Shown piece by piece: positions 33,807-60,756 of a DNA stretch of 64,000 nt. The notes beneath the pieces are model-generated. The model was not told the origin of the DNA, ran no database searches, and saw only the letters and a program-made list of their open reading frames with translations. The position numbers and the translations under genes are program-made. This stretch comes from a virus (taxonomy: Duplodnaviria; Heunggongvirae; Uroviricota; Caudoviricetes). Numbering within the stretch: the first letter of the stretch is position 1; every line of letters begins with the position of its first letter. Location: IMG/VR virus record IMGVR_UViG_3300028653_000011. The stretch is one strand, 5' to 3'.

Positions 33807-34571
33807 ATGTGCACCCTCATCGTCCTCAGTGAAGCGATCGATGGTTACCCACTCGTCGTCGCCGCCAATCGCGATGAGCACTATGATCGGCCTTCGCTGC
33901 CGCCTGCAATCACCGGTGATGTCATCTGCCCGCGTGATCTCCACAAGGGTGGCACGTGGCTGGGCGTGGCTCGTGGTGGCTGGTTCGCCGGGTTGACCAA
34001 CCAAGTCGACGCCCACCAACCGCACCTGCTGGCGTCACGAGGCCACGTCGTTGATGCTTGCCTCAAGGCCGGCAATCACCTGGCCGTGGCCCAATACCTG
34101 CAGGGGCTTGATCGTGGCGTCTACAACAACTTCAACCTGGTCTTTGGCAGGCCCGGCGCCATTTTTTTGTGCCGTGTCTGGGGGCTGCACGCGCTGGAGA
34201 TGCTCGTGGTGCCTGCAGGAACCAGCGTCTTCACCAATGATTGTTGGGACGGGCAGTTTCAGGCCAAGGCCGAGCGCGCCCGCGAATTGACCACCCACCT
34301 CGCCGGCGCAGTACCGATCCACGACGTCAAGAACGCGTTGTTCGCAGTGCTGTCAGACCACCAACACGGTGACGATCCTCGTCAATCGATGTGCATCCAT
34401 GCCGACGGTTGGGGCACTCGTAGCACCTCGATCATCACAGTGTCCAATGAGGGGGCCGTGGAGTACTACTATTCAGATGGTGCACCGTGTAGGAGTCCCG
34501 GTGTTGCATGTGTGGGCGTTCTATCGATTGATGACGAACTCATCACTGACGCAGACCTGAAGAAACCCTGA
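33807..34571 (+). CDS. NRDE/TANGO2-family protein
   Basis: N-terminal MCTLIVL (Cys2) and AANRDE motif. Length ~250 aa typical of the family. Confidence 0.8.
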   Translation: MCTLIVLSEAIDGYPLVVAANRDEHYDRPSLPPAITGDVICPRDLHKGGTWLGVARGGWFAGLTNQVDAHQPHLLASRGHVVDACLKAGNHLAVAQYLQGLDRGVYNNFNLVFGRPGAIFLCRVWGLHALEMLVVPAGTSVFTNDCWDGQFQAKAERARELTTHLAGAVPIHDVKNALFAVLSDHQHGDDPRQSMCIHADGWGTRSTSIITVSNEGAVEYYYSDGAPCRSPGVACVGVLSIDDELITDADLKKP

Positions 34572-34768: not shown

Positions 34769-35429
34769 CGTCATCGAACAAGCCAGCGATCGCCGACACC
34801 TGAAGGGTTATGGCAAGAACTTCAAACCATTGGTCGCCGCCGGCTCGTGGGTGATCAGCGGATTCCGTTACGGCAGGTCGAAGTGTGCCTGTTGTGGGCG
34901 ACCCATTCACCACGTATTGCAGTTGACCAACGAGAGCCACGACGATTCGATCAAGGTGGGCAAGTTCGACGCGAGCGGACAGTCATTTTCGAAGACGATC
35001 GACATCGGCATTGTCTGCGGGCCCAAGGTCTTCACCGAATCATGCGTCGGCTTCTACGATGACCCTACACGTGAGTGGGAGCGCCAGATCAAGACGTGGC
35101 GCGACTTCATCACCTACACCATTCTCTGCGTCAAGAACGCTGACACTTGGGCGCGGGTACCTGAAGAGATCAGAGGAGCCATTGACCTCTACCTTGAGAA
35201 GGGATACAAGGTTGACTTGCAGCACAGCGGTAAATGGTGTCTCATCAAGGATTGCAAGAAGCGCTATCTCAAGATCAAGCGCTCGCCCGGGGTGATGCCG
35301 CAGGTGCAAGTGCTTCTCATGTATGCGCGCTCGTTGATCAGCGTTGCAAAGCGTCAGGGACTGATCCCACTCAACTGGAGACTCGGTGACGACATGAACC
35401 TGATCAAGGACATCGAGGTGTGCACGTGA
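34746..35429 (+). CDS. hypothetical Cys-containing protein
   Basis: MKTTQQSDVIEQA N-terminus (leader-like), CACCGRPIHH motif. 227 aa. Confidence 0.5.
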   Translation: MKTTQQSDVIEQASDRRHLKGYGKNFKPLVAAGSWVISGFRYGRSKCACCGRPIHHVLQLTNESHDDSIKVGKFDASGQSFSKTIDIGIVCGPKVFTESCVGFYDDPTREWERQIKTWRDFITYTILCVKNADTWARVPEEIRGAIDLYLEKGYKVDLQHSGKWCLIKDCKKRYLKIKRSPGVMPQVQVLLMYARSLISVAKRQGLIPLNWRLGDDMNLIKDIEVCT

Positions 35430-35515
35430 GTGCCTCGCGCTCGTGGACTGACCTATTGTTTACCGACAAGGCACCATCACCACCATCACCACCATCAACT
35501 AGGAAGACAGCTCAC

Positions 35516-36787
35516 ATGGCAGACGACAGTGATTCTAAGTTGATGCACGAATCGACGTCCCTCTATGATGAAGTCAGGCGTGCCCTGGGCGTCAACCACG
35601 TCAAACGAGCCTTTGCGTTGGGCACCGAACTGTTCGGTGCGGCGACTCCATTCCTCGACAAGCCCACGTGGTGGAATGCGGCCAAGTCTGTCTTTGCCAT
35701 GGGCAAAGTGATGGTCGAAGACGTCGAAGTGTACAGCGACGACTACTTCGGGGGTGACGAGTGGACCGAACCCTACAATCCTGACTTCAACCAGACGTTG
35801 CTCCACGTGCTGCAAAAGTTCCCGTATGAGCGCATCAAGACGGCCGAGGACAACACCTTTGTCAGGTTGGTCACCCTGCCCAATGGAATCAGGGTGGGAT
35901 GGACATACACGGGCAAGATGCAGATGGTCGACCACATCTACGTCAAGACCGATCAAGTTGACATGGCGCGCGACTTCATCAAGAAGTTGTTGTGGGCTCA
36001 ATTTGAGGGCAAGTCGCTCGTCATGCGGAAGAATAACCGGGTGATGATGACCGGTGATGAAGCGCGTGTCATCTTTGAGGTCGACAATGCCTTCGAATCG
36101 AAGTTGTCACAGCGCGCGACCGACTACGCCGAGTACCTCAAGAAGCCACTGACGGCAGGGGTGCCGCGGTCGGTGATGTTCTATGGCCCACCAGGCACCG
36201 GCAAGTCGACGCTGGCGCGGACGATCGTGGAGCTGATGAACCTCAGGTCATTCCGCATCAGGATCGCTGACCTTGGCGGGCTCGATAACTCCACGTTGTT
36301 CGAGGCCATCAACATCTTCGAACCCGACGCCGTCATCCTTGACGACTTTGATCGGGCTAACGGCCAAGCGCAGTTGCTCGAGACGCTGGAGTTTTTTCAA
36401 CAGCGCGTCAAGCTGGTCATTGTCACCGTCAACAATAGGATGGAACTTGATGAGGCACTGCTGCGACCGGGACGCATTGATGAACTGGTCCTCATTGACA
36501 AGATGGACAATGAGGTCGTCAAGCACGTGTTGGGCGACTACGTCGACGGTTTCGACGTGGTGAAGGATTGGCCCATCGCATTCATTGCAGAATATGTTGT
36601 CCGTCGCACCTACCTCTCGGCAGAAGAGGCGGCAACGTCTGTCAAGGAATTGACAGAACGCGTCAATCGTCTCGCATGTTATCGTGATGAGAATGACGTG
36701 CAGCGGATGGTAAAGTTGATGACCGCGAAGAACAAGAAGGCCAAGCGCAAGACGTTGAATGAGAATGGAGGTAGTGGCCCTTTTTGA
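35516..36787 (+). CDS. AAA+ family ATPase
   Basis: Walker A GPPGTGKST, Walker B VILDDFD, sensor-2 LLRPGRID. AGGAAG SD before the ATG at 35516. Confidence 0.8.
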   Translation: MADDSDSKLMHESTSLYDEVRRALGVNHVKRAFALGTELFGAATPFLDKPTWWNAAKSVFAMGKVMVEDVEVYSDDYFGGDEWTEPYNPDFNQTLLHVLQKFPYERIKTAEDNTFVRLVTLPNGIRVGWTYTGKMQMVDHIYVKTDQVDMARDFIKKLLWAQFEGKSLVMRKNNRVMMTGDEARVIFEVDNAFESKLSQRATDYAEYLKKPLTAGVPRSVMFYGPPGTGKSTLARTIVELMNLRSFRIRIADLGGLDNSTLFEAINIFEPDAVILDDFDRANGQAQLLETLEFFQQRVKLVIVTVNNRMELDEALLRPGRIDELVLIDKMDNEVVKHVLGDYVDGFDVVKDWPIAFIAEYVVRRTYLSAEEAATSVKELTERVNRLACYRDENDVQRMVKLMTAKNKKAKRKTLNENGGSGPF

Positions 36788-37464: not shown

Positions 37465-39126
37465 ATGATTGAGGCCATGAACGACAATACCACGCACGTC
37501 ATCTTTGCCGCGGACGCTCGTAAGCAACTGTGGGCCGGCATGAAGATTGCTGCCGATGCCGTCACCACGACGTTGGGCCCTAAAGGTCGCACCGTCATCA
37601 TCCAGCGCGCTAACCAATCCCCTCTGGTGACGAAGGACGGGATCACCGTCGCCAAGTCGATCAAGTTGAAAGATCCCGTCAAGCGGATGGGCGCCGAACT
37701 GATCCTCGAAGCTGCCAATCAGACCAATGAGGTCGCCGGTGACGGCACCACGACGGCCACGTGCCTGACGGCCGCGCTCGTCGCCGAAGGTTTGAAGCTG
37801 GTCGAAGGCGGCTTTAGCCCACTCGAGCTGTGCAAGGGCATTGAGGCAGCGACCGGGTTGGTGCTCGCCGCCCTCAAACAACAGGCGGTGCAGGTGTCAA
37901 CCAGTGCTGCGGTCGCCCAAGTCGGTACCATCAGTGCCAACGGTGATGCACAGATCGGCAAGTTGATCGCCGATGCCATGGAACACGTGGGCCGCGACGG
38001 CATCATCACCGTCGAGGACGCCAAGGGCATGGCCACGTCAATGTCAATCGCTGATGGCATGCAGTTTGAACGCGGCTACATTAGCCCCTACTTCGTCACC
38101 GATGCAGAACGGATGCGGGCGACGTACGATGATGCCTTTGTCCTCGTCACTGACAAGAAGATCAGCAGCCTCAAGGAACTGATCCCACTGCTCGAGCGAG
38201 TGGTGCGGTTACAGAAGGGCCTGCTGATCATCGCTGAAGATGTCGACGGTGATGCACTGACGGGCCTCGTCCTCAACCGCGTCAAGTCAGGCCTGCCCGT
38301 TGTCGCCATCAAGGCACCCGGTTACGGCCTGCACCGACAAGAGCTACTGCACGACATCTGCGTCATGACGGGTGCAACCCTCGTCTCCAGTGCCAACGGC
38401 CTGACACTCGACAAGGTCACTGACGCCAACTTGGGACGTGTCAAGCGCTTCAACACCGACGCGAAGTCGACGACGCTCGTCGGGACGGGTGCTCAAAAGA
38501 CGCACATTGACACCCACGTGGTTGAACTGCGCAAGCAGCTCGAGGACATCACTCTGGGGCAGGATGAGGTGACCAAGCTGAAGGTTCGCATTGCCAAGTT
38601 GGCCTCGGGCGTCGCCGTCATCCGCGTCGGCGGCGCGACCGAAGTCGAGATGACAGAGCGGCGCTTCCGCGTCGAGGATGCATTGAACGCGACGAAAGCG
38701 GCCGTCGAAGAGGGCATTGTGCCCGGTGGCGGCATGGCCTTCTACCACGCCGTCCATGCAGTGAAGAGTACGACGGTCGATGAAGCCACCGGCGCCCACG
38801 ATGAGCAGGCAGGCATGGGTGTCGTCTATCGGGCGTGCCTCGCGCCGCTCAAGCGCATCATTGAGAATGCAGGTGCCAGCTCTCCCGTGGTGCTGGCGGA
38901 ATTGGCGCGCAGGGATGCCGCGGCACCGCTCATCAATGACAACATGGGTTACAACGCGGCGACGGGTGAATACGTCGACCTCGTCACTGCCGGCGTCGTC
39001 GATCCTGTCAAGGTGGCACGGACTGCACTGAAGAACGCAGCATCAGTTGCTGTCACCTTCCTCAGCCTCGACGCCGTGGTGTATGATGAACAGGTCACCA
39101 AGGAGCAACACGCTGATGAACAGTGA
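37465..39126 (+). CDS. groL: chaperonin GroEL (Hsp60), lacking C-terminal GGM repeats
   Basis: Collinear with E. coli GroEL (AGDGTTTAT, VGTISANGD, GYISPYF, LLIIAEDVDGDAL, AAVEEGIVPGGG). C-terminus ends ...KEQHADEQ. Confidence 0.95.
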   Translation: MIEAMNDNTTHVIFAADARKQLWAGMKIAADAVTTTLGPKGRTVIIQRANQSPLVTKDGITVAKSIKLKDPVKRMGAELILEAANQTNEVAGDGTTTATCLTAALVAEGLKLVEGGFSPLELCKGIEAATGLVLAALKQQAVQVSTSAAVAQVGTISANGDAQIGKLIADAMEHVGRDGIITVEDAKGMATSMSIADGMQFERGYISPYFVTDAERMRATYDDAFVLVTDKKISSLKELIPLLERVVRLQKGLLIIAEDVDGDALTGLVLNRVKSGLPVVAIKAPGYGLHRQELLHDICVMTGATLVSSANGLTLDKVTDANLGRVKRFNTDAKSTTLVGTGAQKTHIDTHVVELRKQLEDITLGQDEVTKLKVRIAKLASGVAVIRVGGATEVEMTERRFRVEDALNATKAAVEEGIVPGGGMAFYHAVHAVKSTTVDEATGAHDEQAGMGVVYRACLAPLKRIIENAGASSPVVLAELARRDAAAPLINDNMGYNAATGEYVDLVTAGVVDPVKVARTALKNAASVAVTFLSLDAVVYDEQVTKEQHADEQ

Positions 39127-39475: not shown

Positions 39476-39700
39476 GTGCAGCCCGGTGAATTGGTCGTCA
39501 AGCGCGTCAGGTGGAGCGTGGACGCCGAGTGCATGGGGTTTGTCGTCGCCCACGCCGCCGGTGATGTCGATGAGTGTTTGGTGATGTGGACGATGGGTGA
39601 CCAACGCATCATGTTCAAGTGGCACCTGACCGACGCGTTGATGGCGGTCGACACGTCTAACGTTGCCGAAGTGAGGGGCAGATGCGACCTCGGTTCTTGA
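39476..39700 (+). CDS. PGD-family small protein
   Basis: QPGELVVKRV ... GFVVAHA ... CLVMWTMGD. Confidence 0.45.
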   Translation: MQPGELVVKRVRWSVDAECMGFVVAHAAGDVDECLVMWTMGDQRIMFKWHLTDALMAVDTSNVAEVRGRCDLGS

Positions 39701-39906
39701 CGGGTGACCTGATCTTGCATACCGGGTGGGATCGTCTGTCGTGGTGTCGGACGATTGCCATGGTCGTCTCCGTGATGCCGGCTAATGACGTGCCTGACGC
39801 ACAGATCAGAGGCATTGAAGCACAACCATGGATCTACTACGTGCTCGACGTCAATACCAACATCATCAACGGTCCACTAACGTCATCGGAGATGGACAGT
39901 GCTTAG
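39682..39906 (+). CDS. PGD-family small protein
   Basis: FLTGDLILHTG ... IAMVVSV ... WIYYVLD. Confidence 0.45.
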   Translation: MRPRFLTGDLILHTGWDRLSWCRTIAMVVSVMPANDVPDAQIRGIEAQPWIYYVLDVNTNIINGPLTSSEMDSA

Positions 39907-40258
39907 GTCGTGGCGACCCGGTGATTTAGCGATCGTCTGTGGCAATAGCCTCATCAGTCGACTCAACAGCAATGTGGCACAGTGGACATTCGGTCACAAG
40001 CTTGTCATCATCGTCGGCGGAGTCAACAGGTGGGTTAGTTCTTCTGACGATGAAGATGTCGTGCAATGTTACATCGTCATGGTGTCTCACACAGACTACG
40101 GTGCACACGCTCCAGGTGGCAATCTCAATCCCATCACATGGCCCCACGTCGTGCCGCTAGTCAGTGGCTTGTACTCGGTACCGAGCGACAGGCTGCTCGA
40201 TCTGACGGAGTTCAGTGAACCAGGCCGCCTGTTTGGCACCCAGAGGCTGCGAGATTAA
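39899..40258 (+). CDS. PGD-family small protein
   Basis: WRPGDLAIVCGNS ... KLVIIVGG ... CYIVMVSH. Confidence 0.45.
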   Translation: MLRSWRPGDLAIVCGNSLISRLNSNVAQWTFGHKLVIIVGGVNRWVSSSDDEDVVQCYIVMVSHTDYGAHAPGGNLNPITWPHVVPLVSGLYSVPSDRLLDLTEFSEPGRLFGTQRLRD

Positions 40259-40264
40259 TTGTCG

Positions 40265-40528
40265 TCACCTAGGTGTAAGCAACTGCCAGTTATACTTGAG
40301 GTTTTCAAGTGACGACGAGAAGATGAAGATCTTGTCGAGCGCTAAGACGTCGAACCTCACGCTCTCCCGTACACGACCGATAAACATGACGGCCATCACC
40401 AGCCCGGTGAATCCTGGGTAAATAACATCACCGTGGTCGCCCCTGTACCAGTGCGATTCCCACGCCCGCATCGGATGTAGGGCGGCAATTAGGTCACCCG
40501 GTTGCAGCGTCAAAGGCCGCGGCGTCAC
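40265..40528 (-). CDS. PGD-family small protein
   Basis: LQPGDLIAALHP ... GLVMAVMFIG ... VLALDKIF. Confidence 0.45.
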   Translation of the reverse strand: MTPRPLTLQPGDLIAALHPMRAWESHWYRGDHGDVIYPGFTGLVMAVMFIGRVRESVRFDVLALDKIFIFSSSLENLKYNWQLLTPR

Positions 40529-41055
40529 TTGAGTCTGAAAGATCGCAACACATCACCGCACACCACACCGGCGCCCGATCGTTCCGAATCGGCCTTGCAG
40601 GCGATGACATAACCCAGGTGCGTTGACGCTTGGCCAATGCCCACGATGCCGAAACCCAACTTGGCGTCGGTGACAATGATCGTCATCGATGCCGGCGAGC
40701 CCCCGACGTCAATCATGTTACGTTTGATGAAGGAGGGTGTGCCTTGCACCAGTCGCGGCGCCTGCATCGCCACGTTCCCAGCGAACTGTTCAGGCGTCTC
40801 CTCTTCATCCATGCCCCGCGCGGTGACGATGACACCCGTGGGTGAACGGGTGCTCGGCCCGGGAGCGTGCGCACGGGTGGCCTCAGCATTGTCTTGATCG
40901 ATGATCCAACCATCGGGGAACGTCATTGACCAATTTGCGTGATTGATGACGACGCGTGCAGGCGTAGCAGCGGCGCTTGCCGGGCTAGAGTGTTGGTGCG
41001 TACAGCAGGCAGTCGTGACGACCAGTAATGCTAGAGCACTCAATCGCTTCATCAT
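40525..41055 (-). CDS. lipoprotein of unknown function
   Basis: Signal plus lipobox (LVVTTACC). 176 aa. ATGA-coupled. Confidence 0.55.
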   Translation of the reverse strand: MMKRLSALALLVVTTACCTHQHSSPASAAATPARVVINHANWSMTFPDGWIIDQDNAEATRAHAPGPSTRSPTGVIVTARGMDEEETPEQFAGNVAMQAPRLVQGTPSFIKRNMIDVGGSPASMTIIVTDAKLGFGIVGIGQASTHLGYVIACKADSERSGAGVVCGDVLRSFRLK

Positions 41056-41375
41056 GGCTCAACACTACATGGGGGGCGGACAATTGTCCAAAGGTTGTCG
41101 TATCCCTCCCAATCGAGCTCAAGTATCGTCATCTCACACCAACCATGACCTGACATCAACCCATTGACTAATTGCCCGATCGATGAACGCTCGTAGTAGG
41201 CGAGAGTGGCCTGTTCTTCGCTGGAGATGATGAACGCATGGTTGCCACTGACGTGGAAGACGATCATGTCCCCCGGGCGCACGGGCAACACCTTGCGGGC
41301 GAGGCCGTCCATCGCTCGGCGCAGTTCAGGGCGCACGGTGGAAGACTCGCCAGCGTTTTCCGCGCTCATCATCAA
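41052..41375 (-). CDS. PGD-family-like small protein
   Basis: VRPGDMIVFHVSGNHAFIISS. Confidence 0.4.
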   Translation of the reverse strand: MMMSAENAGESSTVRPELRRAMDGLARKVLPVRPGDMIVFHVSGNHAFIISSEEQATLAYYERSSIGQLVNGLMSGHGWCEMTILELDWEGYDNLWTIVRPPCSVEP

Positions 41376-41568
41376 ACAACACTAGCACCTTGACATATTC
41401 ACCGATGATGACTGTCACCACGTTGTAGCGACCCTCAACACGTTTTTCAACATTGACAATGAAGGCCAATATGGGCTTGCCGGTCGTCGCGCGGAAATCA
41501 ATGAGCAAGTGGCCCGGTAACAATGGAAGATCAGCGGCCATCTTTCGTAAGTAATCGTTCGAGTTCAC
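41326..41568 (-). CDS. PGD-family small protein
   Basis: LLPGHLLIDFRATTGKPILAFIVNV ... VVTVIIGEY. Confidence 0.45.
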   Translation of the reverse strand: MNSNDYLRKMAADLPLLPGHLLIDFRATTGKPILAFIVNVEKRVEGRYNVVTVIIGEYVKVLVLFDDERGKRWRVFHRAP

Positions 41569-42912: not shown

Positions 42913-43179
42913 ATGAGGCTCACCCTACGTCGTCTACGACGATTGATACGAGAATTCGGTGTTGACGACACACTACGGAATGATGCTGGCTTCTTCATGG
43001 CAGGCGGCCTGAGTTCAGCGCACCGTGACCGTGAGAATACGTTGATGGATCCACCGCCCGGGTTGGGCAGTGACGCAGAAGAGACAGATGACGCAGAGAA
43101 GGATGGAGACATTGAAGACAAATCACAGTTCGCAGTCAGGGTTGACGACAAACGAGGCGGGCCGGGACGATCGGCTTGA
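42913..43179 (+). CDS. leader-family small protein
   Basis: MRLTLRRLRRLIREFG N-terminus, acidic C-terminus. Confidence 0.45.
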   Translation: MRLTLRRLRRLIREFGVDDTLRNDAGFFMAGGLSSAHRDRENTLMDPPPGLGSDAEETDDAEKDGDIEDKSQFAVRVDDKRGGPGRSA

Positions 43180-43180
43180 A

Positions 43181-43375
43181 ATGCAGGGTAAGGTCGAAGA
43201 GTGCATGCCGGGCACGCTGTTCCGGGTGCGCTGCGACAACGGGCACCTCGTCCTGTGTACCTTGAGCGGCAAGTTGAGGCAGAACCGCATCAGAATACTG
43301 GCCGGTGACGCGGTGACGTGCGAGTGCAGTCCGTATGATGTCTCGAGGGGTCGCATCACCTGGAGACGTACGTAA
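43181..43375 (+). CDS. infA: translation initiation factor IF-1 (bacterial type, S1-like fold)
   Basis: MQGKVEECMPGTLFRVRCDNGHLVLCTLSGKLRQNRIRILAGDAVTCECSPYDVSRGRITWR is collinear with E. coli IF1. An in-frame N-terminal extension to 43070 is possible. Confidence 0.85.
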   Translation: MQGKVEECMPGTLFRVRCDNGHLVLCTLSGKLRQNRIRILAGDAVTCECSPYDVSRGRITWRRT

Positions 43376-43380: not shown

Positions 43381-43572
43381 GTGAAGTGGTTGCTCTATGT
43401 CTTGATTTTCACTGGCGCAGGTGTGTTGGGTTCCACCTGCACTTGGTTAGCATCGCGTGGTCGTACGTTCGATGCGGGTGTATTGACGTGGATGACGGTA
43501 TGCACCACGTGGTTCATCCTCACTGACCTGCAGCTCGAACGTGCTGACACAACCAATCACCGTGTGACGTAG
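43381..43572 (+). CDS. small membrane protein
   Basis: Two hydrophobic segments. 63 aa. Confidence 0.4.
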   Translation: MKWLLYVLIFTGAGVLGSTCTWLASRGRTFDAGVLTWMTVCTTWFILTDLQLERADTTNHRVT

Positions 43573-43623
43573 TAAGGCTAGGACGTTGTTGTACTACTGG
43601 TTGATCGAACGTAGTATGGCAGT

Positions 43624-43893
43624 ATGAAATACGTCATCACTGCCCTGGTCGCCATGACGCTCGTTGCCTGCGCTTCAGGTCCCGTCTTCAATGAGGGTGC
43701 CGATCATGAAGAAGGCGCCGACATCCCGTGCCAGACACCCGGACAACCCCGTGCACAATTGGGTTGGCATGCATGTCGCCGTGGGCCCGTTGCCTGTTGC
43801 CCCGACGGTTATTCGTGCTCGGCCGACGATTTCGTGCCGCGTGCTGACGGCGCCTGTCGTTGGTGGGCCCCCACGGCGACGTCCCAATATTAA
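43624..43893 (+). CDS. small Cys-rich lipoprotein
   Basis: Signal plus lipobox (LVACAS). 8 Cys in 89 aa. Confidence 0.5.
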   Translation: MKYVITALVAMTLVACASGPVFNEGADHEEGADIPCQTPGQPRAQLGWHACRRGPVACCPDGYSCSADDFVPRADGACRWWAPTATSQY

Positions 43894-45266: not shown

Positions 45267-46052
45267 TCAATACGTGTAGACGTCATCGCCGATCGGGAAC
45301 AGTTTACGTTCAAAGCGTGACTCGCCACTGTGAACGGCACGCGCCTTGACGCTGACCAACCTCTCATCGGGCAGCACATAGGCCCACAGCTCGCCGCCAA
45401 AGCAACAACCACCGTCGAGGCCCACCGCTTTCGGGGTGATCAATGGCCTATTGAGGACGCTGTGACCGAAGAAGATGCGCTCAGGCCCGTCCCAAAAGTG
45501 GTGCCAAAAGCGCCAACCTTCGTTGGGAGGAATGCGACTCGGCCACATCGACTTGTCGTTGATCCTCATCTGACCATCGGCACCAAAGTCGTAGGGACAG
45601 ATGCACTGTATGTGGGTCAAGTGACGCACGGACTGGCGTTCGATGGGCACCCCTGGGAAGACGCCGGCATGGACGGCGACGGCGTTGAACTCTGGTAGAC
45701 GCAGGTACAGTGGCAACCGCCTGAAGTAGTCGTAGTGCTCGGGACGGAGCTGTGACCGGGTGACGACGTGAGACGGGGGTAGCTGACTCGGCAGCTTACC
45801 AGTGCGTGCCAGTACGTCTTCATGATCGAGGTGCCGGTGTTCATGGTTGCCCAGGATGCAGGCGGGTTTGCCTTGTCGCGCTTCGATCCGCATCGCCAGG
45901 TCAACGCACTTGCCGCTCTCGGGACCTCGGTCGACGGTATCACCGAGGAAGATGACCCAGTCTTCAGGACGCGCCTTGCACTTGTCGAGCAGTTCTTGTT
46001 GTTCTGCATAACAACCTTGAACATCACCCACTAGAATTGTGCGCATTGCCAT
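45267..46052 (-). CDS. metallophosphoesterase (PPP family; ApaH / lambda-phosphatase-like)
   Basis: GDVQGC, LGDTVDRGP, GNHE motifs. Confidence 0.8.
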   Translation of the reverse strand: MAMRTILVGDVQGCYAEQQELLDKCKARPEDWVIFLGDTVDRGPESGKCVDLAMRIEARQGKPACILGNHEHRHLDHEDVLARTGKLPSQLPPSHVVTRSQLRPEHYDYFRRLPLYLRLPEFNAVAVHAGVFPGVPIERQSVRHLTHIQCICPYDFGADGQMRINDKSMWPSRIPPNEGWRFWHHFWDGPERIFFGHSVLNRPLITPKAVGLDGGCCFGGELWAYVLPDERLVSVKARAVHSGESRFERKLFPIGDDVYTY

Positions 46053-46894
46053 TTGAACCCATATGCTGTTTCTTTTTCACCAGTCAAACACGCCTTAATT
46101 GTATCTTTATGGGCACCAATACCCAGCTCTTTTAGAGCTAACACAGCGTGTTTAATTGATGAAAAGGTGGCGACGATATTGCCATTTAATGATAATTGAT
46201 CAACTGCAATCCATGATGATTTCGTTTTCACTTTTGGAACATGAACGTCATCACCCGCCACTCTCCAATAAAAACCATGACTCAACATTACATGACCTAT
46301 TTTAACAGGAATCACTCGTTGGGTGGCTTTTGTTAATCCTTGTTCACTTAACCATATTTGTACTGCGCTTCGAGAATCGTGTAATTCTAAAAACTGTCCA
46401 TCAGTTGACCAACGTTCAATGCGTACTTTTTGTTGATTAGCACCTTGAGATCTATTTTGAATTTCTTCATCAGTGTACGGTGCTTTACGCCAACCAACGT
46501 GACTTCTATATTTATGTGCTTGACGAATTTTCTCATTTGTTTCAGGCGTTGGTTTCTTATGCGTTTGTGGCTTTCTCGTATAGAAGTCTTGTCCACCTAC
46601 AGTAAGATTGTAACCATATCCACCCATTCTGATGTTAGTATTTAATTTTGCGATCCAATAACGTTCACGATCATTGAGTTGTTCATCAGAACATTCTTCA
46701 ATGACTTCATATTTGAAATTTTCAAATCCATGTTTGATTAACGCACCCAAAATTGGTCTGCCCAATTTATTGTACTTTTTATGATGCGTTGCACCGTATT
46801 TGTAATTGCGCCAATGTATTTCTGGATCGACTTTTGATTGACCAACATACAGCTTATCATTGAGAATATTAAGAATCTTATAAATGTGACTCAT
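46031..46894 (-). CDS. GIY-YIG homing endonuclease
   Basis: IYKILNILNDKLYVGQS ... ERYWIAKLNT ... YN. The basic C-terminal half is a probable DNA-binding region. Confidence 0.85.
   Translation of the reverse strand: MSHIYKILNILNDKLYVGQSKVDPEIHWRNYKYGATHHKKYNKLGRPILGALIKHGFENFKYEVIEECSDEQLNDRERYWIAKLNTNIRMGGYGYNLTVGGQDFYTRKPQTHKKPTPETNEKIRQAHKYRSHVGWRKAPYTDEEIQNRSQGANQQKVRIERWSTDGQFLELHDSRSAVQIWLSEQGLTKATQRVIPVKIGHVMLSHGFYWRVAGDDVHVPKVKTKSSWIAVDQLSLNGNIVATFSSIKHAVLALKELGIGAHKDTIKACLTGEKETAYGFKWQCAQF
46031..46894 (-). mobile_element. free-standing homing-endonuclease gene in a low-GC island
   Basis: Marked drop in GC (~40% by eye) confined to this ORF, against ~60% flanks. Confidence 0.6.
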
Positions 46895-49633: not shown

Positions 49634-49900
49634 TCACTCGGTGACGATCCGCCTGATCCAACCCAACGAACCCGTGTGCCAGATCACCGTGGGCCCGGGT
49701 CCCAGCAACTGATACATGTACCAGCCACCCACCGTTGCCATCTTATAGTCACGCGCCAACAGCAACCACGGTACCGCCCGATCGATGCCGGCGTTCGGAT
49801 CTATGGAGAAGATGGTCCACCCATCGCCGTTCGGATTGGCGATAAAGAAGAAGAATGTCCCAACCTCGATGTTAGCGGGGGAAAATTCACGATCACGCAT
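49634..49900 (-). CDS. hypothetical protein
   Basis: 88-aa ORF with C-terminal GSLGWIRRIV. Confidence 0.4.
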   Translation of the reverse strand: MRDREFSPANIEVGTFFFFIANPNGDGWTIFSIDPNAGIDRAVPWLLLARDYKMATVGGWYMYQLLGPGPTVIWHTGSLGWIRRIVTE

Positions 49901-50120
49901 TGAATGCCATCATTGTTGACTTGCACTCATAGTCGGTGTAGTGACGTAGTTTACACTCGTCAGTGAAGACCGTGACGGTAGCCTTTGCGAGGTTGCCCAC
50001 AGATCTGTCAGTGAACGGCTCAACACCGATGACCAGCGCGGTGATCCACTCGATGTTGGAGGCAGAGCTCTGCAAGCTCTGCAACATGTCGCCCGGTTTC
50101 AGGTTCTTTGCCGACCTCAC
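49893..50120 (-). CDS. PGD-family small protein
   Basis: LKPGDMLQSLQSS ... ALVIGVEP. Confidence 0.4.
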   Translation of the reverse strand: MRSAKNLKPGDMLQSLQSSASNIEWITALVIGVEPFTDRSVGNLAKATVTVFTDECKLRHYTDYECKSTMMAFNA

Positions 50121-50329
50121 TTGACAACCTCACACCATGTGCCGATATAGGCGTAACTATATGCCTCAACCTTGCCATTGTCAACCACAATGGTCACCCT
50201 ATCATCAAAACTATTGACGTCAGGGTCATCGGGCACCGCAATGACGAAGGCGAAGTGCCATGGCACCAAGTCGCCTTTACCACGGTAGTGTATCCGACGC
50301 AGGAGATTACCTGGCACGGGCAGCATCAT
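50117..50329 (-). CDS. PGD-family small protein
   Basis: PVPGNLLRRIHYRG ... AFVIAVPDD. Confidence 0.4.
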   Translation of the reverse strand: MMLPVPGNLLRRIHYRGKGDLVPWHFAFVIAVPDDPDVNSFDDRVTIVVDNGKVEAYSYAYIGTWCEVVK

Positions 50330-50652
50330 GCATGCCTGTCATTGATGACACGTAATTCACAGTCGCTCGACGACACCCAAATTGGTCGGCCCTTCCACAG
50401 GACGAGGTGTGCAGTGATAGCTCCGAGGTTGAACTTGATCTTCGGGGGCGCCAACTGCTGGCTGGCGATGTAGAGGCAATAGGTACCCGCGGGGATGACT
50501 CCCACCATGATGGCATCTACCTCAGTTCTTGTCTTCGCGCGATCGAACAACTCTGGCACACGCTTGGCTTTGATCGAGAACGAATCACGGAGTTGCCAGA
50601 GCTGTACTAGGTTGCCCGTCTTGAGATCGGTCACTGTCCGACTCCGCACCAC
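50326..50652 (-). CDS. PGD-family small protein
   Basis: LKTGNLVQLWQL ... AIMVGVIPAG ... LVLWKGRPIWV. Confidence 0.4.
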   Translation of the reverse strand: MVRSRTVTDLKTGNLVQLWQLRDSFSIKAKRVPELFDRAKTRTEVDAIMVGVIPAGTYCLYIASQQLAPPKIKFNLGAITAHLVLWKGRPIWVSSSDCELRVINDRHA

Positions 50653-50980
50653 ACTCGCGAGCGTATTGCCTGATGAAGTCGTCCAAGTGCAGGCGTATGG
50701 TGCAGAGATCTAATAGTGTCAGTCGGCGCAAACCACGGGTGCCTAGTACGACAAATGAGTCGATGCTGTCGCCTACGGGACTGGTCACGTCGAACGCCGC
50801 ACGGAAAGCGTAGCGATGGTTGGCATAGCTCGTTGATTCGAGAGCATCCTTCTTGACGACCTGATAGATGACGTGGTTCTTTAATTGCGACAACTTGTCG
50901 TCGACCGTGTAGACGCAGAGATCTCCTAGTTGTAGTTCGCACGATTCAAGCGTCCCCTTTAGCGATCCCGGTGCTGCCAT
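50585..50980 (-). CDS. PGD-family-like protein (boundaries uncertain)
   Basis: LQLGDLCVYTVDD. Overlaps the downstream gene by 68 nt in another frame. Confidence 0.3.
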   Translation of the reverse strand: MAAPGSLKGTLESCELQLGDLCVYTVDDKLSQLKNHVIYQVVKKDALESTSYANHRYAFRAAFDVTSPVGDSIDSFVVLGTRGLRRLTLLDLCTIRLHLDDFIRQYARECGAESDSDRSQDGQPSTALATP

Positions 50981-51005
50981 CCTCAGATCTTACACCACGC
51001 TCAGG

Positions 51006-51353
51006 TCACCGCGTGTAAGGGTGTGTAAGGGTGTGTAAGGGTGTGTAAGGGTGTGTAAGGCCGAGGAAGTCTGCGGGCACTTGAAGCGCCGCGGCGAGCT
51101 TGCGTCTAAACACGTTCACATCATCATCGTCGAACAGCATGGGCATGCGTGACCACAGCACCTTCACCTGCTCGACACCATCGTCGTCATTGACCACGGC
51201 ACTGACCACGACACCCAAGGAAGTATGGCGAAAGCTAACGTCACAGACGAGGTCACCGGGACGGGGTTGCCACGCCAGCCGCTCGAACTCGTTTACCTGT
51301 TGTCGACGATCGACGTGAACTATCAACGTCGTCCACGTGGTTGCCAGCTTCAC
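51006..51353 (-). CDS. PGD-family small protein with C-terminal LTHPYTP repeats
   Basis: PRPGDLVCDVSF ... GVVVSAVV ... VKVLWSRMP. Its 3' end is encoded by the 10-bp tandem repeat. Confidence 0.45.
   Translation of the reverse strand: MKLATTWTTLIVHVDRRQQVNEFERLAWQPRPGDLVCDVSFRHTSLGVVVSAVVNDDDGVEQVKVLWSRMPMLFDDDDVNVFRRKLAAALQVPADFLGLTHPYTPLHTLTHPYTR
51010..51060. repeat. tandem repeat, 10-bp unit GTGTAAGGGT, about 5 copies
   Basis: gtgtaagggtgtgtaagggtgtgtaagggtgtgtaagggtgtgtaagg. The unit contains the GTGTAAG -35-like heptamer. Confidence 0.85.
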
Positions 51354-51362
51354 TGCATCACC

Positions 51363-51782
51363 CTATACCACGTCACACACAAGTTCAGCGCACTCCAACT
51401 CACCGTCATTGATCCAGAACAGCTTGCCCTGTCTCAGGCAGACGTGCCACCGCTTAGGGACGCGCCCGCATCCGTCGTCGCCCGCAATGGGCATGAACTG
51501 TGGCACGGGCACTTCATGTGGACCCACGTCATCGGTGCTGACGATGACAAAGGTGTCGCCCGTCGTCATCGACAAGGTGGTGTATTTGTATGAGAAGCCT
51601 CGCTCGACCAGGCGAAAGGGCCACCAACCGCGCGCGACGCCGCAGGTGAATGTCCACATCCACAATTGACAGGGCTTTACGACCACAACACCCAGACATA
51701 ATACGACGGGTATCGTGCGCGGGAAGGTGGGCGCCCAATGACGAGGCCCAAGCGCCTTGGGATCAACTCCGTGGATCGACAC
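51363..51782 (-). CDS. PGD-family-like protein (true start possibly the internal Met at 51569)
   Basis: MTTGDTFVIVSTDD ... WHVCLRQGKLFWINDGEL. Confidence 0.3.
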   Translation of the reverse strand: MSIHGVDPKALGPRHWAPTFPRTIPVVLCLGVVVVKPCQLWMWTFTCGVARGWWPFRLVERGFSYKYTTLSMTTGDTFVIVSTDDVGPHEVPVPQFMPIAGDDGCGRVPKRWHVCLRQGKLFWINDGELECAELVCDVV

Positions 51783-51864
51783 ACCAGCGCGCCGGGTGCG
51801 ATGTCACGAGCCCCTTGAAGCGCGGCGCACTTCGGCTCATGCGCCACAATCAACGCAAACTGGT

Positions 51865-52623
51865 TCACCTCTTCGAGCACGTCAGCACCTCACAGCCGTC
51901 GTCGGTGATCAACACCGTGTGCTCAAACTGTGCACTCCAACCCTTGTCGTAAGTCCGCACTGTCCAGCCGTCGGCCTCCACGTAGACGTCACGCGCTCCC
52001 AAGCACAGGATGGGTTCGATGGTGAAGACATCACCCACCTTCAGCACCGTCTGGTCGCCGCAGGCCCAGTGATTGACGTGTGGCTTGGTGTGGAACAGGG
52101 TGCCGATGCCGTGACCACCGAACTCACGCACCACGGTGCAGCCCCCTGCCCTTGCCAGTGGTTCAATCGCTTGGCCAATCGCACCCAACCTCACCCCGGG
52201 CCCGACAATGCCCACCGCCGTTTCCAACGCCAGCCGGGTCAGTTCCACCAATCGCCGTGCGTCGGGTGACGGGGTGCCCACGTAGAAGGTGGCGCTGCAA
52301 TCGCCGAAGTGGCCGTCAAGGATCGTCGTCACGTCGATGTTGATGATGTCGCCGTCGCATAGGACGAGTGCACCTGGGATGCCGTGACAGACGACGTCAT
52401 TGACGCTGGTGCAGACGCTGCGCGGGAAGCCGTGGTAGTTGAGCGGTGCCGGGATGCCGCCCCGCGCGACGGTGTGATCGTGGACAAAGTCGTTGAGGGC
52501 GGCCGTCGTCGAGCCCGGGCGAACGATGGCACCCGCCGCCTGCAGCGTGTCCGCCGCCGAGGCACATGCCTTACGCATCTTGCTTAGGTCGAAGGACTGC
52601 ACCTCTCTAACATATTCAATCAC
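51865..52623 (-). CDS. map: methionine aminopeptidase, type I
   Basis: Collinear with bacterial MAP. Metal ligands in DGDIINIDV, GHGIG, EP context. 252 aa. Confidence 0.9.
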   Translation of the reverse strand: MIEYVREVQSFDLSKMRKACASAADTLQAAGAIVRPGSTTAALNDFVHDHTVARGGIPAPLNYHGFPRSVCTSVNDVVCHGIPGALVLCDGDIINIDVTTILDGHFGDCSATFYVGTPSPDARRLVELTRLALETAVGIVGPGVRLGAIGQAIEPLARAGGCTVVREFGGHGIGTLFHTKPHVNHWACGDQTVLKVGDVFTIEPILCLGARDVYVEADGWTVRTYDKGWSAQFEHTVLITDDGCEVLTCSKR

Positions 52624-52629
52624 CGCGCA

Positions 52630-52929
52630 CTATACATCATCATCCTGTACCTGAGCAAACCGCGGTGATGAGATGACATTGGTGTATTCGGTCCGAACCC
52701 AACCCCATTTCACCTGAGCACCATGGGTGCCGATGATCCAGACCAACACCCAGTCCAAGTGCCGGTTGATGCCGATTACAAGAGCGCTGGTGCCGCCCGG
52801 CGCTCCGCCAATGTGAGCGCGCACGGCGGGCTTGGTATAAAGCAACGCGTAGCCATTGAACACGACGACATCACCAGGTAGCGCCCGTCGCCCGTGAAAA
52901 TGTAGACGGAGGCGCTTGGTGAACGTCAC
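52630..52929 (-). CDS. PGD-family small protein (array 1, member 1)
   Basis: ALPGDVVVFNGY ... ALVIGINR ... WVLVWIIG ... WGWV. Confidence 0.5.
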   Translation of the reverse strand: MTFTKRLRLHFHGRRALPGDVVVFNGYALLYTKPAVRAHIGGAPGGTSALVIGINRHLDWVLVWIIGTHGAQVKWGWVRTEYTNVISSPRFAQVQDDDV

Positions 52930-53159
52930 GTCGGCACCAATATGATGCCGCGTTCAACGATCCAACCCAGCGTATTGCCCCACAACGCGTAGACAAAACC
53001 GTCTCGGTGAGCGATGACGACGCCCATGACGCTTGGCTCAACGTGGCCCACACAGTCGTTAACGCCCACATCGACCGACGCCCACACGGCCACCTTGAGA
53101 GAGGTCCAACGTGCGTCGAGTTGCACGAAGTCGCCGGGTAACCATTCGTGATCTATCAT
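52926..53159 (-). CDS. PGD-family small protein (array 1, member 2)
   Basis: WLPGDFVQLD ... GVVIAHRDG ... YALWGNTLGWIV. ATGA-coupled. Confidence 0.5.
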   Translation of the reverse strand: MIDHEWLPGDFVQLDARWTSLKVAVWASVDVGVNDCVGHVEPSVMGVVIAHRDGFVYALWGNTLGWIVERGIILVPT

Positions 53160-53395
53160 ACGGGCGCCACGACGGTGTTGTCAACCCATGCCATGATGGC
53201 CAACTCCGACCAAAAGACACAGACGAGGAACTGGTCACATTGGCCGATGACGAGGCCCAACGCCCCCGCGGTGGGACGACCTACACGATCGTGATTGGTG
53301 ACATCGTTGGAGGCCCACAGTGAAAAGATGTTGTTGCGTGGCAATGGCACCACCTTGACAAGGACACCGGGTAGTAACAGTGACCCGTTGTTCAC
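53156..53395 (-). CDS. PGD-family small protein (array 1, member 3)
   Basis: LLPGVLVKVV ... GLVIGQCD ... VFWSELAIMAWV. Confidence 0.5.
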   Translation of the reverse strand: MNNGSLLLPGVLVKVVPLPRNNIFSLWASNDVTNHDRVGRPTAGALGLVIGQCDQFLVCVFWSELAIMAWVDNTVVAPV

Positions 53396-53658
53396 GGCAA
53401 GAACCTCAACTCATCATTGAACAGCCAACCCACCTGGTCATCAACGAGGCACAGCGAATAGCATGTGCCCTTATTTTTCGGTGACTCTATGGCAATGACC
53501 AGCGCTACCATGTGATTTTTAGCCGCGATGCCCCGACCGTTCCACCATGCTTGGCGTTCATCGAGGTTCTCATAGAGCGCAGCACCCGGTCGCACGCCAT
53601 ATAACTTCCCCGGCCTTGTGGTGAGGCGTGAGTAATGTGACCTAGTCATCTTCACCAT
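53392..53658 (-). CDS. PGD-family small protein (array 1, member 4)
   Basis: RPGAALYENL ... ALVIAIES ... CLVDDQVGWLF. Confidence 0.45.
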   Translation of the reverse strand: MVKMTRSHYSRLTTRPGKLYGVRPGAALYENLDERQAWWNGRGIAAKNHMVALVIAIESPKNKGTCYSLCLVDDQVGWLFNDELRFLP

Positions 53659-53662
53659 TGCA

Positions 53663-53908
53663 TCACACCTTACGCAGGTAGCCGTCCGACACGTAGCCCA
53701 ACACCGACGGCATTGACCACAACACGTAGGTGTAGTCCCGCCGACGATTGATGACGAGGCCTAGGCCACCCGGCATCACCACGCCTAGGCGACTGCGCAC
53801 GACGAGGAGCTCGCCGGCGCTAACGGAGCTCCATACCGAAACGGGCTCATCACCGCGAACCAACACGATGTCACCGGGTGCGGGTGGCCTGTCGATGTAA
53901 CTCATCAC
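53663..53908 (-). CDS. PGD-family small protein (array 1, member 5)
   Basis: PAPGDIVLVRGD ... GLVINRRRD ... YVLWSMPSVLGYV. Confidence 0.5.
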   Translation of the reverse strand: MMSYIDRPPAPGDIVLVRGDEPVSVWSSVSAGELLVVRSRLGVVMPGGLGLVINRRRDYTYVLWSMPSVLGYVSDGYLRKV

Positions 53909-53936
53909 GAAGTGCTTTCGGACTGAGTGTAGCTCA

Positions 53937-54248
53937 TTACTTGACCCTCACCAAGAACTTGACCAGCGTCCAGCCCTTTTTCATTGATGCACTGTCAAAG
54001 ACAAACGCCCATGCAACGTCTTTTTCATGTCGCCCGTCGACATCGGTGATGGTTCGCTCTGCCAACAATAATCCGAACTTGAATGTCCCGGTCGCTGACA
54101 CCATGCGAGGTACAAACACCGACGGCAATGGTTGATCCCACGTACCATGACCACCCACGTGTACGCTCCTCACCAGGTCACCCGTACGTAGTAACTTGCG
54201 GCCCATCAGTGCCTTCCGACGACGCGAAGGGCCGAGCCCCAGACCCAT
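53937..54248 (-). CDS. PGD-family small protein (array 1, member 6; possible internal start at 54206)
   Basis: LRTGDLVRSVHVGG ... FGLLLAER ... WAFVFDSASMKKGWTLV. Confidence 0.45.
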   Translation of the reverse strand: MGLGLGPSRRRKALMGRKLLRTGDLVRSVHVGGHGTWDQPLPSVFVPRMVSATGTFKFGLLLAERTITDVDGRHEKDVAWAFVFDSASMKKGWTLVKFLVRVK

Positions 54249-54544
54249 TTAATCCGCGGCTTACTGGTGTTCACTAGCACCAAGGTGGGATGCGAGGTGT
54301 AATCGGAATAAAGGCTCGGTACGGCGATCACCGCGAGGACGAGGGCATGCTTCTCGACGAACATTAAGGCACCTTCAATAAGCCCCGTCAAGAGGGCACG
54401 CGCTGGCACTTCCGTACCAAACACCGTGACTTGTCGACCCGGGATGGGATTCAGCCTCACATCGTCCCACAGCGCCACGGGGTGTTTACACGCGACGATG
54501 TCACCGGGCCTAATGTCGATCACGTGTTTGATGACATCGATCAC
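54206..54544 (-). CDS. PGD-family small protein (array 1, member 7)
   Basis: IRPGDIVACKHP ... LVLAVIAV ... IKWVWGSAL. Confidence 0.5.
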   Translation of the reverse strand: MIDVIKHVIDIRPGDIVACKHPVALWDDVRLNPIPGRQVTVFGTEVPARALLTGLIEGALMFVEKHALVLAVIAVPSLYSDYTSHPTLVLVNTSKPRIKWVWGSALRVVGRH

Positions 54545-54816
54545 GGCGCGGCCTCGATGCTCTCGAGCAGCACCCAGCCCAGCTTGCCGTCGTCATACAA
54601 CACGTAGACGACGGTGTCACCACCCTTCTTGTGCATGGTGATGACCAGCGCCTTGGCATTGAGGCGACCCTGCAACCCACCGGCGAACAGGTTGCTGTCG
54701 TCACCACCGTTGATGTGACTAAAGATGATGCGCGGCATGTAGGGCACGGGCACCACCAGGTCGCCGGGCTTGATGCAGGCATCAGGCGACCATTGGTCAG
54801 CTTTGGCGTCGATCAT
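54541..54816 (-). CDS. PGD-family small protein (array 1, member 8)
   Basis: IKPGDLVVPVPY ... ALVITMHKK ... YVLYDDGKLGWVL. Confidence 0.5.
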   Translation of the reverse strand: MIDAKADQWSPDACIKPGDLVVPVPYMPRIIFSHINGGDDSNLFAGGLQGRLNAKALVITMHKKGGDTVVYVLYDDGKLGWVLLESIEAAP

Positions 54817-60752: not shown

Positions 60753-60756
60753 AATC

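Follow-up and report, generated by a model that had tools for sequence, protein, structure and literature searches.

The subject of this analysis is a 64,000-nucleotide (nt) stretch of tailed-phage DNA (IMG/VR record IMGVR_UViG_3300028653_000011, Caudoviricetes; hereafter, the window), which encodes a homolog of bacterial translation initiation factor 1 (IF-1, the product of infA), a small gene that overlaps the 5' end of infA, and a methionine aminopeptidase (MetAP, the product of map). Exact matches of the encoded proteins place the window at approximately positions 86,001-150,000 of a metagenomic contig (ENA ERZ27245402, k141_2233850) that, with 359,321 bp, lies above the 200 kb from which phages are counted as huge or jumbo. 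The features in question are the following (aa, amino acids):

43103..43375, plus strand: IF-1 gene in its most probable extent, 90 aa and stop (alternative starts: ATG 43088, 95 aa; GTG 43070, 101 aa)
43103..43159, plus strand: IF-1 leader, residues 1-19, METLKTNHSSQSGLTTNEA, preceding the canonical bacterial N-terminus
43160..43372, plus strand: IF-1 OB-fold core, the equivalent of full-length bacterial IF-1
42913..43179, plus strand: upstream gene, 88 aa, with an N-terminal MRLTLRRLRRLIRE helix motif, AGFF, a Gly-rich linker, PPGLG and an acidic tail
43103..43179, plus strand: dual-coding overlap of 77 nt (92 nt if IF-1 starts at 43088), with the upstream acidic tail in frame 0 and the IF-1 leader in frame +1
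43046..43087, plus strand: conserved stretch of 42 nt, just after a stop in the IF-1 frame and ending before the first IF-1 ATG
51865..52623, minus strand: type I (Ia-like) MetAP, 252 aa

An IF-1 with an N-terminal leader

The open reading frame (ORF) that ends at position 43375 on the plus strand matches the infA profile TIGR00008 with 86.7 bits (cut-off, 61.15) and PF01176 with 82 bits (cut-off, 30.2), and its product is 56-57% identical to the IF-1 of Escherichia coli and Streptococcus pneumoniae over 67-68 alignment columns, far beyond chance, so that the homology to E. coli IF1 asserted in the initial annotation of this DNA holds. An AlphaFold2 model obtained with the class alignment shows a confident OB (S1-like) barrel at residues 21-90 (predicted local distance difference test, pLDDT, >90) that consists of five strands (residues 25-34, 39-44, 49-54, 70-75 and 82-89), with a short helix (56-60) between strands 3 and 4. 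A Foldseek comparison of this model with IF-1 structures, including 4ql5 and 9fco_I (the E. coli IF1 chain in the 30S-IF1-IF3 complex), gives target TM-scores of 0.92-0.94 and a root-mean-square deviation of 0.8-1.0 Å.

The initial annotation identified infA correctly, as the profile scores indicate, but placed its start at 43181. In an alignment of 35 metagenomic homologs with E. coli IF1, the six codons that precede this position (RDDRLE) match the canonical N-terminus (KEDNIE in E. coli), and the closest relatives run about 20 residues further upstream. The start at 43181 is therefore, judging from the alignment, wrong, because it would remove residues homologous to the bacterial N-terminus. 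A codon-by-codon survey of the starts in 85 viral and 80 bacterial IF-1 loci distinguishes two viral classes. In 77 of the 80 bacterial loci, a start codon lies at about -8 relative to the residue aligned with 43181, and the leader is absent; about half of the viral loci (class B) have such an ordinary start, M-A/S-K-E/D-x-I-E (MAKE-type). Class A, the leader class, consists of 30 viral loci including the window, with no Met at -8 and with an ATG at -16 to -28; here, a leader rich in K, N, S, Q and R (K 20%, N 12%), usually with a net charge of +3 to +5, runs into E-R-(D/E)-D-R-(L/M)-E. The residue aligned with Met 43181 is Leu or Phe in most relatives and Leu in 83% of class A, so that 43181 cannot be a conserved start.

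Thus, the window ORF does not encode a single-domain IF-1 of ~70-75 aa that starts with M-(A/S)-K-(E/D); it is 19-24 (up to 30) codons longer, and the leader-bearing IF-1 represents a variant architecture. Solved IF-1 chains and the IF-1 sequences in GTDB align only from residue ~20 of the 90-aa form onward, and the leader, with a pLDDT of ~50, is predicted to be disordered. The 90-aa form is identical to a database protein (P0001), and the 95-aa form is the gene call on contig ERZ27245402; the 101-aa ORF has no exact database record because the gene callers chose 90 or 95 aa. The extension that had been suspected from 43070 is accordingly real, being conserved in ~30 viral loci, and only its coordinate is off: the most likely start is 43103 or 43088 rather than GTG 43070. 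The tryptic peptide of the window leader would be TNHSSQSGLTTNEAGR. E. coli IF1 has been used as an active factor while still bearing an N-terminal His6 tag that was not cleaved off (PMC13345285), so that an N-terminal tail is compatible with ribosome binding.

It is improbable, in our estimate, that the leader is missing from the protein and that a 64-aa IF-1 is produced from ATG 43181 by termination-reinitiation at the upstream stop (TGAaATG). The upstream stop codon (43177-43179) indeed ends 1 nt before this ATG, the composition of the leader is that expected from a +1 reading of an acidic tail, and no strong Shine-Dalgarno (SD) sequence precedes any of the upstream starts: the duplex energies with the anti-SD sequence for starts 43070, 43088, 43103 and 43181 are -2.9 to -4.5 kcal/mol, compared with a genome mean of -5.0. 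Scans for sigma-70 promoters and intrinsic terminators around IF-1 gave results at chance level. A start at 43181 would, however, delete the counterpart of the conserved bacterial N-terminus (R/K-D/E-D-x-I/L-E) and would fall on a site that is predominantly Leu in class A; furthermore, the upstream stop is found anywhere from -46 to +44 nt relative to the site aligned with 43181, so that stop-start coupling is not conserved, and it is the ATG at -16 to -28, together with the K-rich sequence, that is conserved.

The residues K39, R41, Y60, R64, R66 and R70 (E. coli numbering) are retained in the window IF-1 and in at least 90% of the leader class, which differs from bacteria by the fixed signatures K3R, N19G, A20T, H35T and I36L; the C-terminal Lys72 is lost in this class, and the C-terminus is shorter than in bacterial IF-1. 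Codon changes in the core among related phages include 291 synonymous and 85 non-synonymous ones, a pattern of purifying selection that is typical of conserved function. In the structural model, the OB-fold core is intact. These data bear on the possibility that the IF-1 homolog no longer acts in initiation and has taken on another role, for example, that of an RNA chaperone or cold-shock-like OB protein, that of an inhibitor that occupies the A site of the 30S subunit on host ribosomes, or that of a decoy for a host defense that monitors or targets IF1. Compatible with such a change are the class-fixed replacements N19G, H35T and I36L at strongly conserved sites, the variability of His30, the absence of Lys72, the additional tail, the tight linkage to a protein of no assigned family, and the lack of other detected initiation components nearby. 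The core, however, is unchanged in its basic and aromatic residues and in its fold, it scores above the equivalog cut-off of TIGR00008, and both its identity to bacterial IF-1 and the excess of synonymous changes point to an authentic factor, so that we regard repurposing as rather unlikely.

A distinct IF-1 fragment is present in the related locus L009, where an alternate frame of the upstream ORF (L009:9880-10004) encodes a cut-off 5' remnant of IF-1, MPKKNRKQQSESPTDEEPRGDRLVLEGQVVECLPEMHHE up to a stop, which overlaps the upstream gene and is located just upstream of a complete IF-1 gene (P0015) with a short, 8-residue leader. This remnant suggests replacement of IF-1 by recombination, with retention of the overlapped 5' part.

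The overlapping upstream gene

The 88-aa protein encoded upstream of IF-1 reads MRLTLRRLRRLIREFGVDDTLRNDAGFFMAGG...PPPGLG, followed by the acidic tail. Homologs of this gene occupy the same position in ~26 of the 31 class A loci and share the motif M-(K/R)-(I/L)-T-x3-L-R-x-(I/L)-I-R-E, an invariant A-G, the Gly-rich linker, an invariant L-G within PPGLG, and the acidic tail. Scanning of 19 members of the family yielded no Pfam or PHROG match, and two motif scans of IMG/VR detected it on six contigs only, all of which had already been recognized as carriers of class A IF-1. In the ~26 loci, the overlap spans 14-116 nt, and IF-1 is always in the +1 frame of the upstream gene; the purine-rich DNA encodes the acidic tail in one frame and the basic leader in the other. 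Both genes are called by JGI, with an overlap of 83 nt, and the upstream gene is dropped from the ENA/Logan calls.

The closest relative is L171, with an IF-1 that is 86% identical. The identity to L171 at third codon positions is 0.50 in the upstream gene outside the overlap, 0.61 in the IF-1 core and 0.81-0.87 in the overlap, and the overlap is more conserved than the core in other close pairs as well. Conservation is also high in the preceding 42-nt stretch (43046..43087), which is 97.6% identical to its counterpart in L171, with identity at 13 of 14 third positions in the upstream frame (0.93) and at all 14 in the IF-1 frame (1.0). This stretch encodes the PPPGLG motif of the upstream protein, and it may additionally represent the translation-initiation region of IF-1 or a sign that GTG 43070 is used. 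The simplest reading of the overlap as a whole would be overprinting.

The invariant frame relation, the occurrence of the overlap in ~26 loci and the high nucleotide conservation could also be expected if the upstream ORF and IF-1 were produced as one fusion protein by a programmed +1 frameshift within the overlap. We find this hardly credible: no slippery or prfB-like site is recognizable by eye, the length of the overlap and the position of the stop vary widely, and independent initiation is favored by the conservation, in the IF-1 frame, of an ATG that opens an M-x-K-K start. Common descent accounts for the constancy of the frame relation.

The N-terminal motif of the upstream protein belongs to a wider set. 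At least eight ORFs in the window share the amphipathic motif M-(K/R)-x-T-x3-L-(R/K)-x2-I-(R/K/T)-E, with N-termini at positions 42913, 43947, 48956, 7732, 16575, 16859, 21557 and 24079. In the family located upstream of IF-1, the Glu residue E14 is invariant, and the residue two positions before it is I, L or V. The I/L-x-E motif is the cleavage motif of the T4 prohead protease gp21 and ends the capsid-targeting sequence of T4 (MKTYQEFIAE in IPIII). The proteins in question may therefore be packaged in the virion and processed. On the other side of IF-1 (43381-43893, plus strand), there are two small genes that are conserved in L171: the first encodes a predicted membrane protein of 63 aa, with a GTG start 5 nt past the IF-1 stop, and the second encodes an 89-aa Cys-rich protein with a lipoprotein-like signal (MKYVITALVAMTLVACASG).

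Inheritance of IF-1 and MetAP in the phage lineage

Analysis of the genomic context of IF-1 reveals a conserved neighborhood that is represented in the window by the following genes:

35420..36787, plus strand: AAA+ ATPase (PF00004), a member of the AAA-GroEL-IF-1 neighborhood
37465..39126, plus strand: GroEL-type chaperonin (PF00118; phrog_5725, 488 bits), the conserved upstream neighbor of the IF-1 class
45267..46052, minus strand: NinI-like Ser/Thr phosphatase (Metallophos; PF00149, phrog_246), a synteny marker between IF-1 and MetAP

GroEL is encoded 1-5 kb upstream of IF-1 in 31 loci, and IF-1 is accompanied by the AAA+ ATPase in 14 loci and by the Metallophos phosphatase likewise in 14. 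The AAA-GroEL-IF-1-phosphatase synteny is kept in up to 31 loci while IF-1 itself diverges to ~50%, and this conservation implies that IF-1 is a long-standing, vertically inherited gene of this phage group. In a neighbor-joining tree based on BLOSUM62, 27 of the 29 class A sequences fall within a clade that lacks bacterial and class B members, a result that is indicative only because the clade has no bootstrap support and the protein is short. No bacterial IF-1 exceeds 64% identity, and the matches come from Bacillota, Gemmatimonadota, Actinomycetota, Chloroflexota and other phyla, so that no recent bacterial donor is apparent; IF-1 has no preferred bacterial relative. Therefore, the leader class is a lineage-specific, vertically inherited form of IF-1.

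The initial annotation of map as a gene for a complete type I MetAP is correct, with the addition that it is located on the minus strand. The protein matches TIGR00500 with 262.4 bits (cut-off, 171.35) and PF00557 with 160 bits, and scores below the cut-off for the type II model TIGR00501 (83.8 compared with 222.65 bits). Its residues 12-251 align to residues 9-251 of E. coli Map with ~47% identity, and all seven catalytic and metal-binding residues are identical, namely, the metal ligands D97, D108, H171, E204 and E235 and the catalytic H79 and H178. As in subtype Ia, the pita-bread domain makes up the whole protein, and N-terminal zinc-finger or SH3-binding extensions are absent. Judging from sequence and, for IF-1, from the model, both IF-1 and MetAP look functional. 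The homologs of MetAP that are 56-79% identical are mostly of a short form (242-252 aa) and include proteins from contigs of 351 kb and 369.5 kb. In a neighbor-joining tree, MetAP belongs to a clade of 43 sequences, 37 of them short-form, which contains the proteins from both of these large contigs and no named bacteria. On the 369.5-kb contig (L173), the MetAP gene, ~7 kb of genes, the Metallophos gene and IF-1 on the opposite strand reproduce the layout of the window. The shared layout and the phage clade indicate that MetAP is also inherited in the lineage. The MetAP gene sits inside an array of small (~75-140 aa) paralogous ORFans, which are expanded at 39476-41568 and 49634-62694, mostly on the minus strand and head to tail; these carry a P-G-D-(L/I/V)-(V/I) motif near the N-terminus and G-W-(I/V) near the C-terminus and have no Pfam match.

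In the initial annotation, IF-1 and MetAP were considered to be paired for control over both initiation and nascent-chain maturation. The two genes, however, are 8.5 kb apart, on opposite strands and in different gene blocks, and accordingly do not form one operon; none of the relatives examined has MetAP within 6 kb of IF-1, and in the huge phage LR756511 (595 kb), the distance is 51 kb. We find no evidence that IF-1 and MetAP act as a coordinated pair, and a joint takeover of initiation and maturation would not be supported beyond co-inheritance. Nor did other genes expected of such a takeover come to light. A Pfam search of nearly all ORFs of at least 40 aa in the window and 20 kb of flanking sequence (~84 kb of the 359-kb contig) detected no ribosomal protein (S21 and S1 included), IF-3, peptide deformylase (PDF) or elongation factor, and ARAGORN identified no tRNA gene either in the window or in the five related or flanking loci to which it was applied. 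The only other gene linked to RNA or translation encodes a nucleotidyltransferase of PF01743 (PolyA_pol/CCA-adding) outside the window (L174:4495-5607, contig positions ~81,150-82,260), which hints at tRNA genes or tRNA repair elsewhere on the contig.

The adjacency of map and infA in two records, MT835508 and MT836419, as in bacterial operons, and the identity of the nearest named bacterial MetAPs (Polyangiales, Polyangium and Minicystis, 55-57%) could be taken to imply that the window comes from a host, being a bacterial contig or containing a recently captured map-infA segment of a ribosomal operon. Both records look like contamination and are not used here as evidence; in general, fragmented multi-contig or bacterial-named 'phage' records with MetAP or IF-1 were set aside as probable host contamination. 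In the window, the separated genes lie among ORFans, with no ribosomal-protein genes; both proteins belong to clades of large viral contigs without bacteria; the GroEL/AAA/phosphatase synteny is phage-specific; and the GC content at third codon positions (GC3) and the codon pattern match those of the rest of the phage. A host origin is, in effect, refuted.

The gene content of the window leads to the same conclusion. A GC3-based gene call yields ~134 mostly short genes that cover 89% of the window, which is dense in short ORFans. The Pfam domains identified in the window include phage lysozyme, a T4 endoV-type pyrimidine-dimer glycosylase, Fpg, a FEN-type 5'-3' exonuclease, two NUDIX proteins, papain- and trypsin-like proteases, a GIY-YIG homing endonuclease, the NinI-like phosphatase, GroEL, the AAA+ ATPase, TANGO2, an SPFH protein, and a pair of malate synthase and isocitrate lyase; this is a typical large-phage accessory set. 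Matches to the `Serglycin` Pfam family were rejected as artefacts of the GS linkers used in the scan. The upstream flank encodes thymidylate synthase, thymidine kinase, dCMP deaminase, Fe-SOD and the CCA-adding-type nucleotidyltransferase. No structural or packaging genes were detected in the ~84 kb; two syntenic relatives carry capsid genes of PF07068 (T4 Gp23) within 10 kb of IF-1 or MetAP. Near-identical contigs exist in sister samples, exact proteins are also found on a 361,059-bp contig, the relatives of the window phage include the 351-kb and 369.5-kb contigs, and those retrieved from IMG/VR are viral contigs that reach 437 kb; a megablast search with 14 kb of the window against 50,697 phage records gave no match at the DNA level. 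The phage-type genes, the presence of Gp23 in syntenic relatives and the viral-contig relatives argue against a host fragment, and the earlier attribution to a very large phage stands.

Several other genes in the window and its relatives deserve mention. The genes for malate synthase (544 aa; PF01274, PF20659) and for isocitrate lyase (460 aa; PF00463) are adjacent (12597-15629, plus strand) and constitute a complete glyoxylate-shunt pair; both enzymes have been found in 22 huge phages (preprint 10.1101/2025.02.27.640493). The GIY-YIG gene (46031-46894, minus strand), with a GC content of 0.39, compared with ~0.58 around it, and a GC3 of 0.26, shares positions 46031-46052 with the 5' end of the phosphatase gene and seems to have been inserted recently as a mobile element; a second GIY-YIG gene is present near IF-1 in L009. 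In two relatives (L007:13870-16515 and L173:2529-5681), proteins of 880-1050 aa match the shoulder domain of the major vault protein (PF11978) and Vault_3 and adjoin SPFH/Band 7 proteins; the SPFH protein of the window is encoded at 31529-32491. Such vault-like proteins are unusual for a phage. Additional unusual cargo of the window includes a TANGO2-family protein (33807-34571; also in L009), a pterin-4a-carbinolamine dehydratase (3311-3721), a carbon-nitrogen hydrolase (1885-2664) and an EamA-type transporter (17541-17957).

Proposed roles and relation to known systems

The observations are best compatible with the hypothesis that the phage lineage possesses its own IF-1 with an overprinted leader and, in a separate unit, an inherited MetAP, and that the window is an accessory-gene region of an uncultured ~360-kb jumbo phage of a T4-type capsid lineage; we assign a probability of about 0.7 to this explanation as a whole. 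The canonical infA start has been lost, and the frame continues into the 3' end of the preceding gene, so that the disordered leader of 19-24 residues is read from the +1 frame of the purine-rich acidic tail of the upstream gene; under this scenario, the loss would have followed the capture of IF-1. The leader probably originated by overprinting, and initiation of IF-1 inside the upstream gene would couple the translation of both. The phage IF-1 would bind the A site of the host 30S subunit in the same way as host IF1 does, would supplement or replace host IF-1 during infection, keeping initiation running, and could possibly bias initiation toward phage mRNAs. The flexible tail could add contacts with RNA or with other factors, as proposed for the N-terminal extensions of phage S21, whereas MetAP would keep the excision of the N-terminal methionine non-limiting during the burst of phage protein synthesis, comparably to phage PDF.

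Several points weigh against this interpretation. The evidence behind it comes from comparison of sequences, structural models and synteny. The starts 43070, 43088 and 43103 are all preceded by weak SD-like sequences. The class A leaders are alike in composition only, not in sequence, and while the leader is basic (Lys/Asn/Arg-rich) in most relatives, that of the window is much less so: read from 43103, it is atypical, with two D/E and a single K/R, and a start at 43088 or 43070 makes it more typical of the class. Furthermore, the composition of the leader follows automatically from the +1 reading of an acidic, lysine-rich tail, so that the leader could be a tolerated by-product that is not under selection. 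In the overlap, non-synonymous changes predominate whichever frame is considered (synonymous to non-synonymous, 11:39 and 12:40), and the constraint is not assignable to either frame. His35, which is present in 79% of bacterial IF-1s, is replaced by Thr in the leader class, and His30 is variable; given these changes, an altered function of the leader-class IF-1 has to be allowed for. Finally, the lack of further translation genes and tRNAs in the ~84 kb lends little support to a broad program of translation remodeling.

A more elaborate version of the explanation would hold that the leader is a selected, phage-specific tail that makes additional contacts on the 30S subunit (with mRNA, rRNA or IF2/IF3) and biases start-site selection toward phage messages as an analog of the eIF1A tail, and that the obligate overlap couples its synthesis to that of the partner protein, perhaps a virion-packaged, protease-processed early effector. 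We consider this version speculative and unlikely to be correct in full.

IF1 and IF3 of huge phages have been described previously and interpreted as intercepting host translation (Al-Shayeb et al. 2020, PMC7162821), and soil huge phages also encode IF1 (PMC11748809), so that the connection between phage IF-1 and very large phages made in the initial annotation is documented. The window IF-1 resembles these and the Lak phage factors in being a bacterial-type IF-1 of a phage with a genome of >200 kb. A tblastn search detects IF-1 in Lak phages, in Sinorhizobium phage Phosso and in the LR7565xx huge phages, with only 38-55% identity to the window protein, which is set apart from the other huge-phage IF1s by the leader class, the overlap with the upstream gene and the GroEL synteny. 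The accounts of huge phages to which the literature check was limited, including PMC7162821, PMC11748809 and 10.1101/2025.02.27.640493, do not mention an IF-1 leader, an overlap with an upstream gene, the GroEL synteny or a phage MetAP. Basic N-terminal extensions on phage S21 and a phage PDF have been reported (PMC7162821). The former offer a parallel, in that the phage version of a small ribosome ligand with a role related to initiation is lengthened at its N-terminus by a basic extension absent from the bacterial protein; S21, however, is a different protein, and the IF-1 leader is K/N/S/Q-rich, not aromatic, and derives from a gene overlap.

With bacterial IF-1 (infA; E. coli P69222-type, PDB 1AH9, 1HR0 and 9FCO), the window protein shares the OB fold, superimposable within ~1 Å, the level of identity and the conserved basic and aromatic residues given above. 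Unlike its bacterial counterpart, the window infA is located outside a ribosomal-protein operon, and its product has the 19-24 extra N-terminal residues, with no Met at the canonical site. The IF-1 orthologs of eukaryotes and archaea, eIF1A and aIF1A, have unstructured N- and C-terminal tails (PMC2731904). The phage protein is similar to these in combining an OB core (Foldseek matches to 4mno, 8pj1_q and others) with a flexible N-terminal tail; the tails, however, are unrelated in sequence, and the phage IF-1 lacks the helical subdomain and the C-terminal tail and scores far below the cut-offs of the aIF-1A/eIF-1A profiles. The likeness to eIF1A is, therefore, to be understood as an analogy only.

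The MetAP is equivalent to the bacterial type Ia Map (E. coli, 1MAT/2MAT; Rickettsia, 3MX6) at the equivalog level of TIGR00500, with all ligands and catalytic histidines, and is distinct from it in belonging to a mostly short-form clade of large phages and in its location within the ORFan array. Like phage PDF, it is a phage-encoded enzyme of the N-terminal methionine excision pathway; unlike PDF, it is responsible for the second step, the removal of Met, and no PDF was found in the window. The PDF of cyanophages and huge phages has reportedly been proposed, by Frank and coworkers in 2013, to sustain protein maturation during infection.

Phage IF-1 is known from the literature; the novelty of the leader, of the overlap and of the phage MetAP clade is that of modest variants. 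To our knowledge, phage-encoded IF-1 has been catalogued and never characterized. The present analysis brings together ~30 viral loci as a coherent clade, with a corrected start, a lineage-specific tail, fixed core substitutions and an overlapping partner gene. For annotation, the locus serves as a warning: gene callers drop the upstream gene or disagree on the start of IF-1, and reading by eye shortened the gene. The features of the leader class allow one to ask whether the viral IF-1 tops up the host factor or shifts start-site selection. MetAP, in turn, has, like PDF, been stably adopted by a jumbo-phage lineage, which widens the known viral reach into co-translational N-terminal processing.

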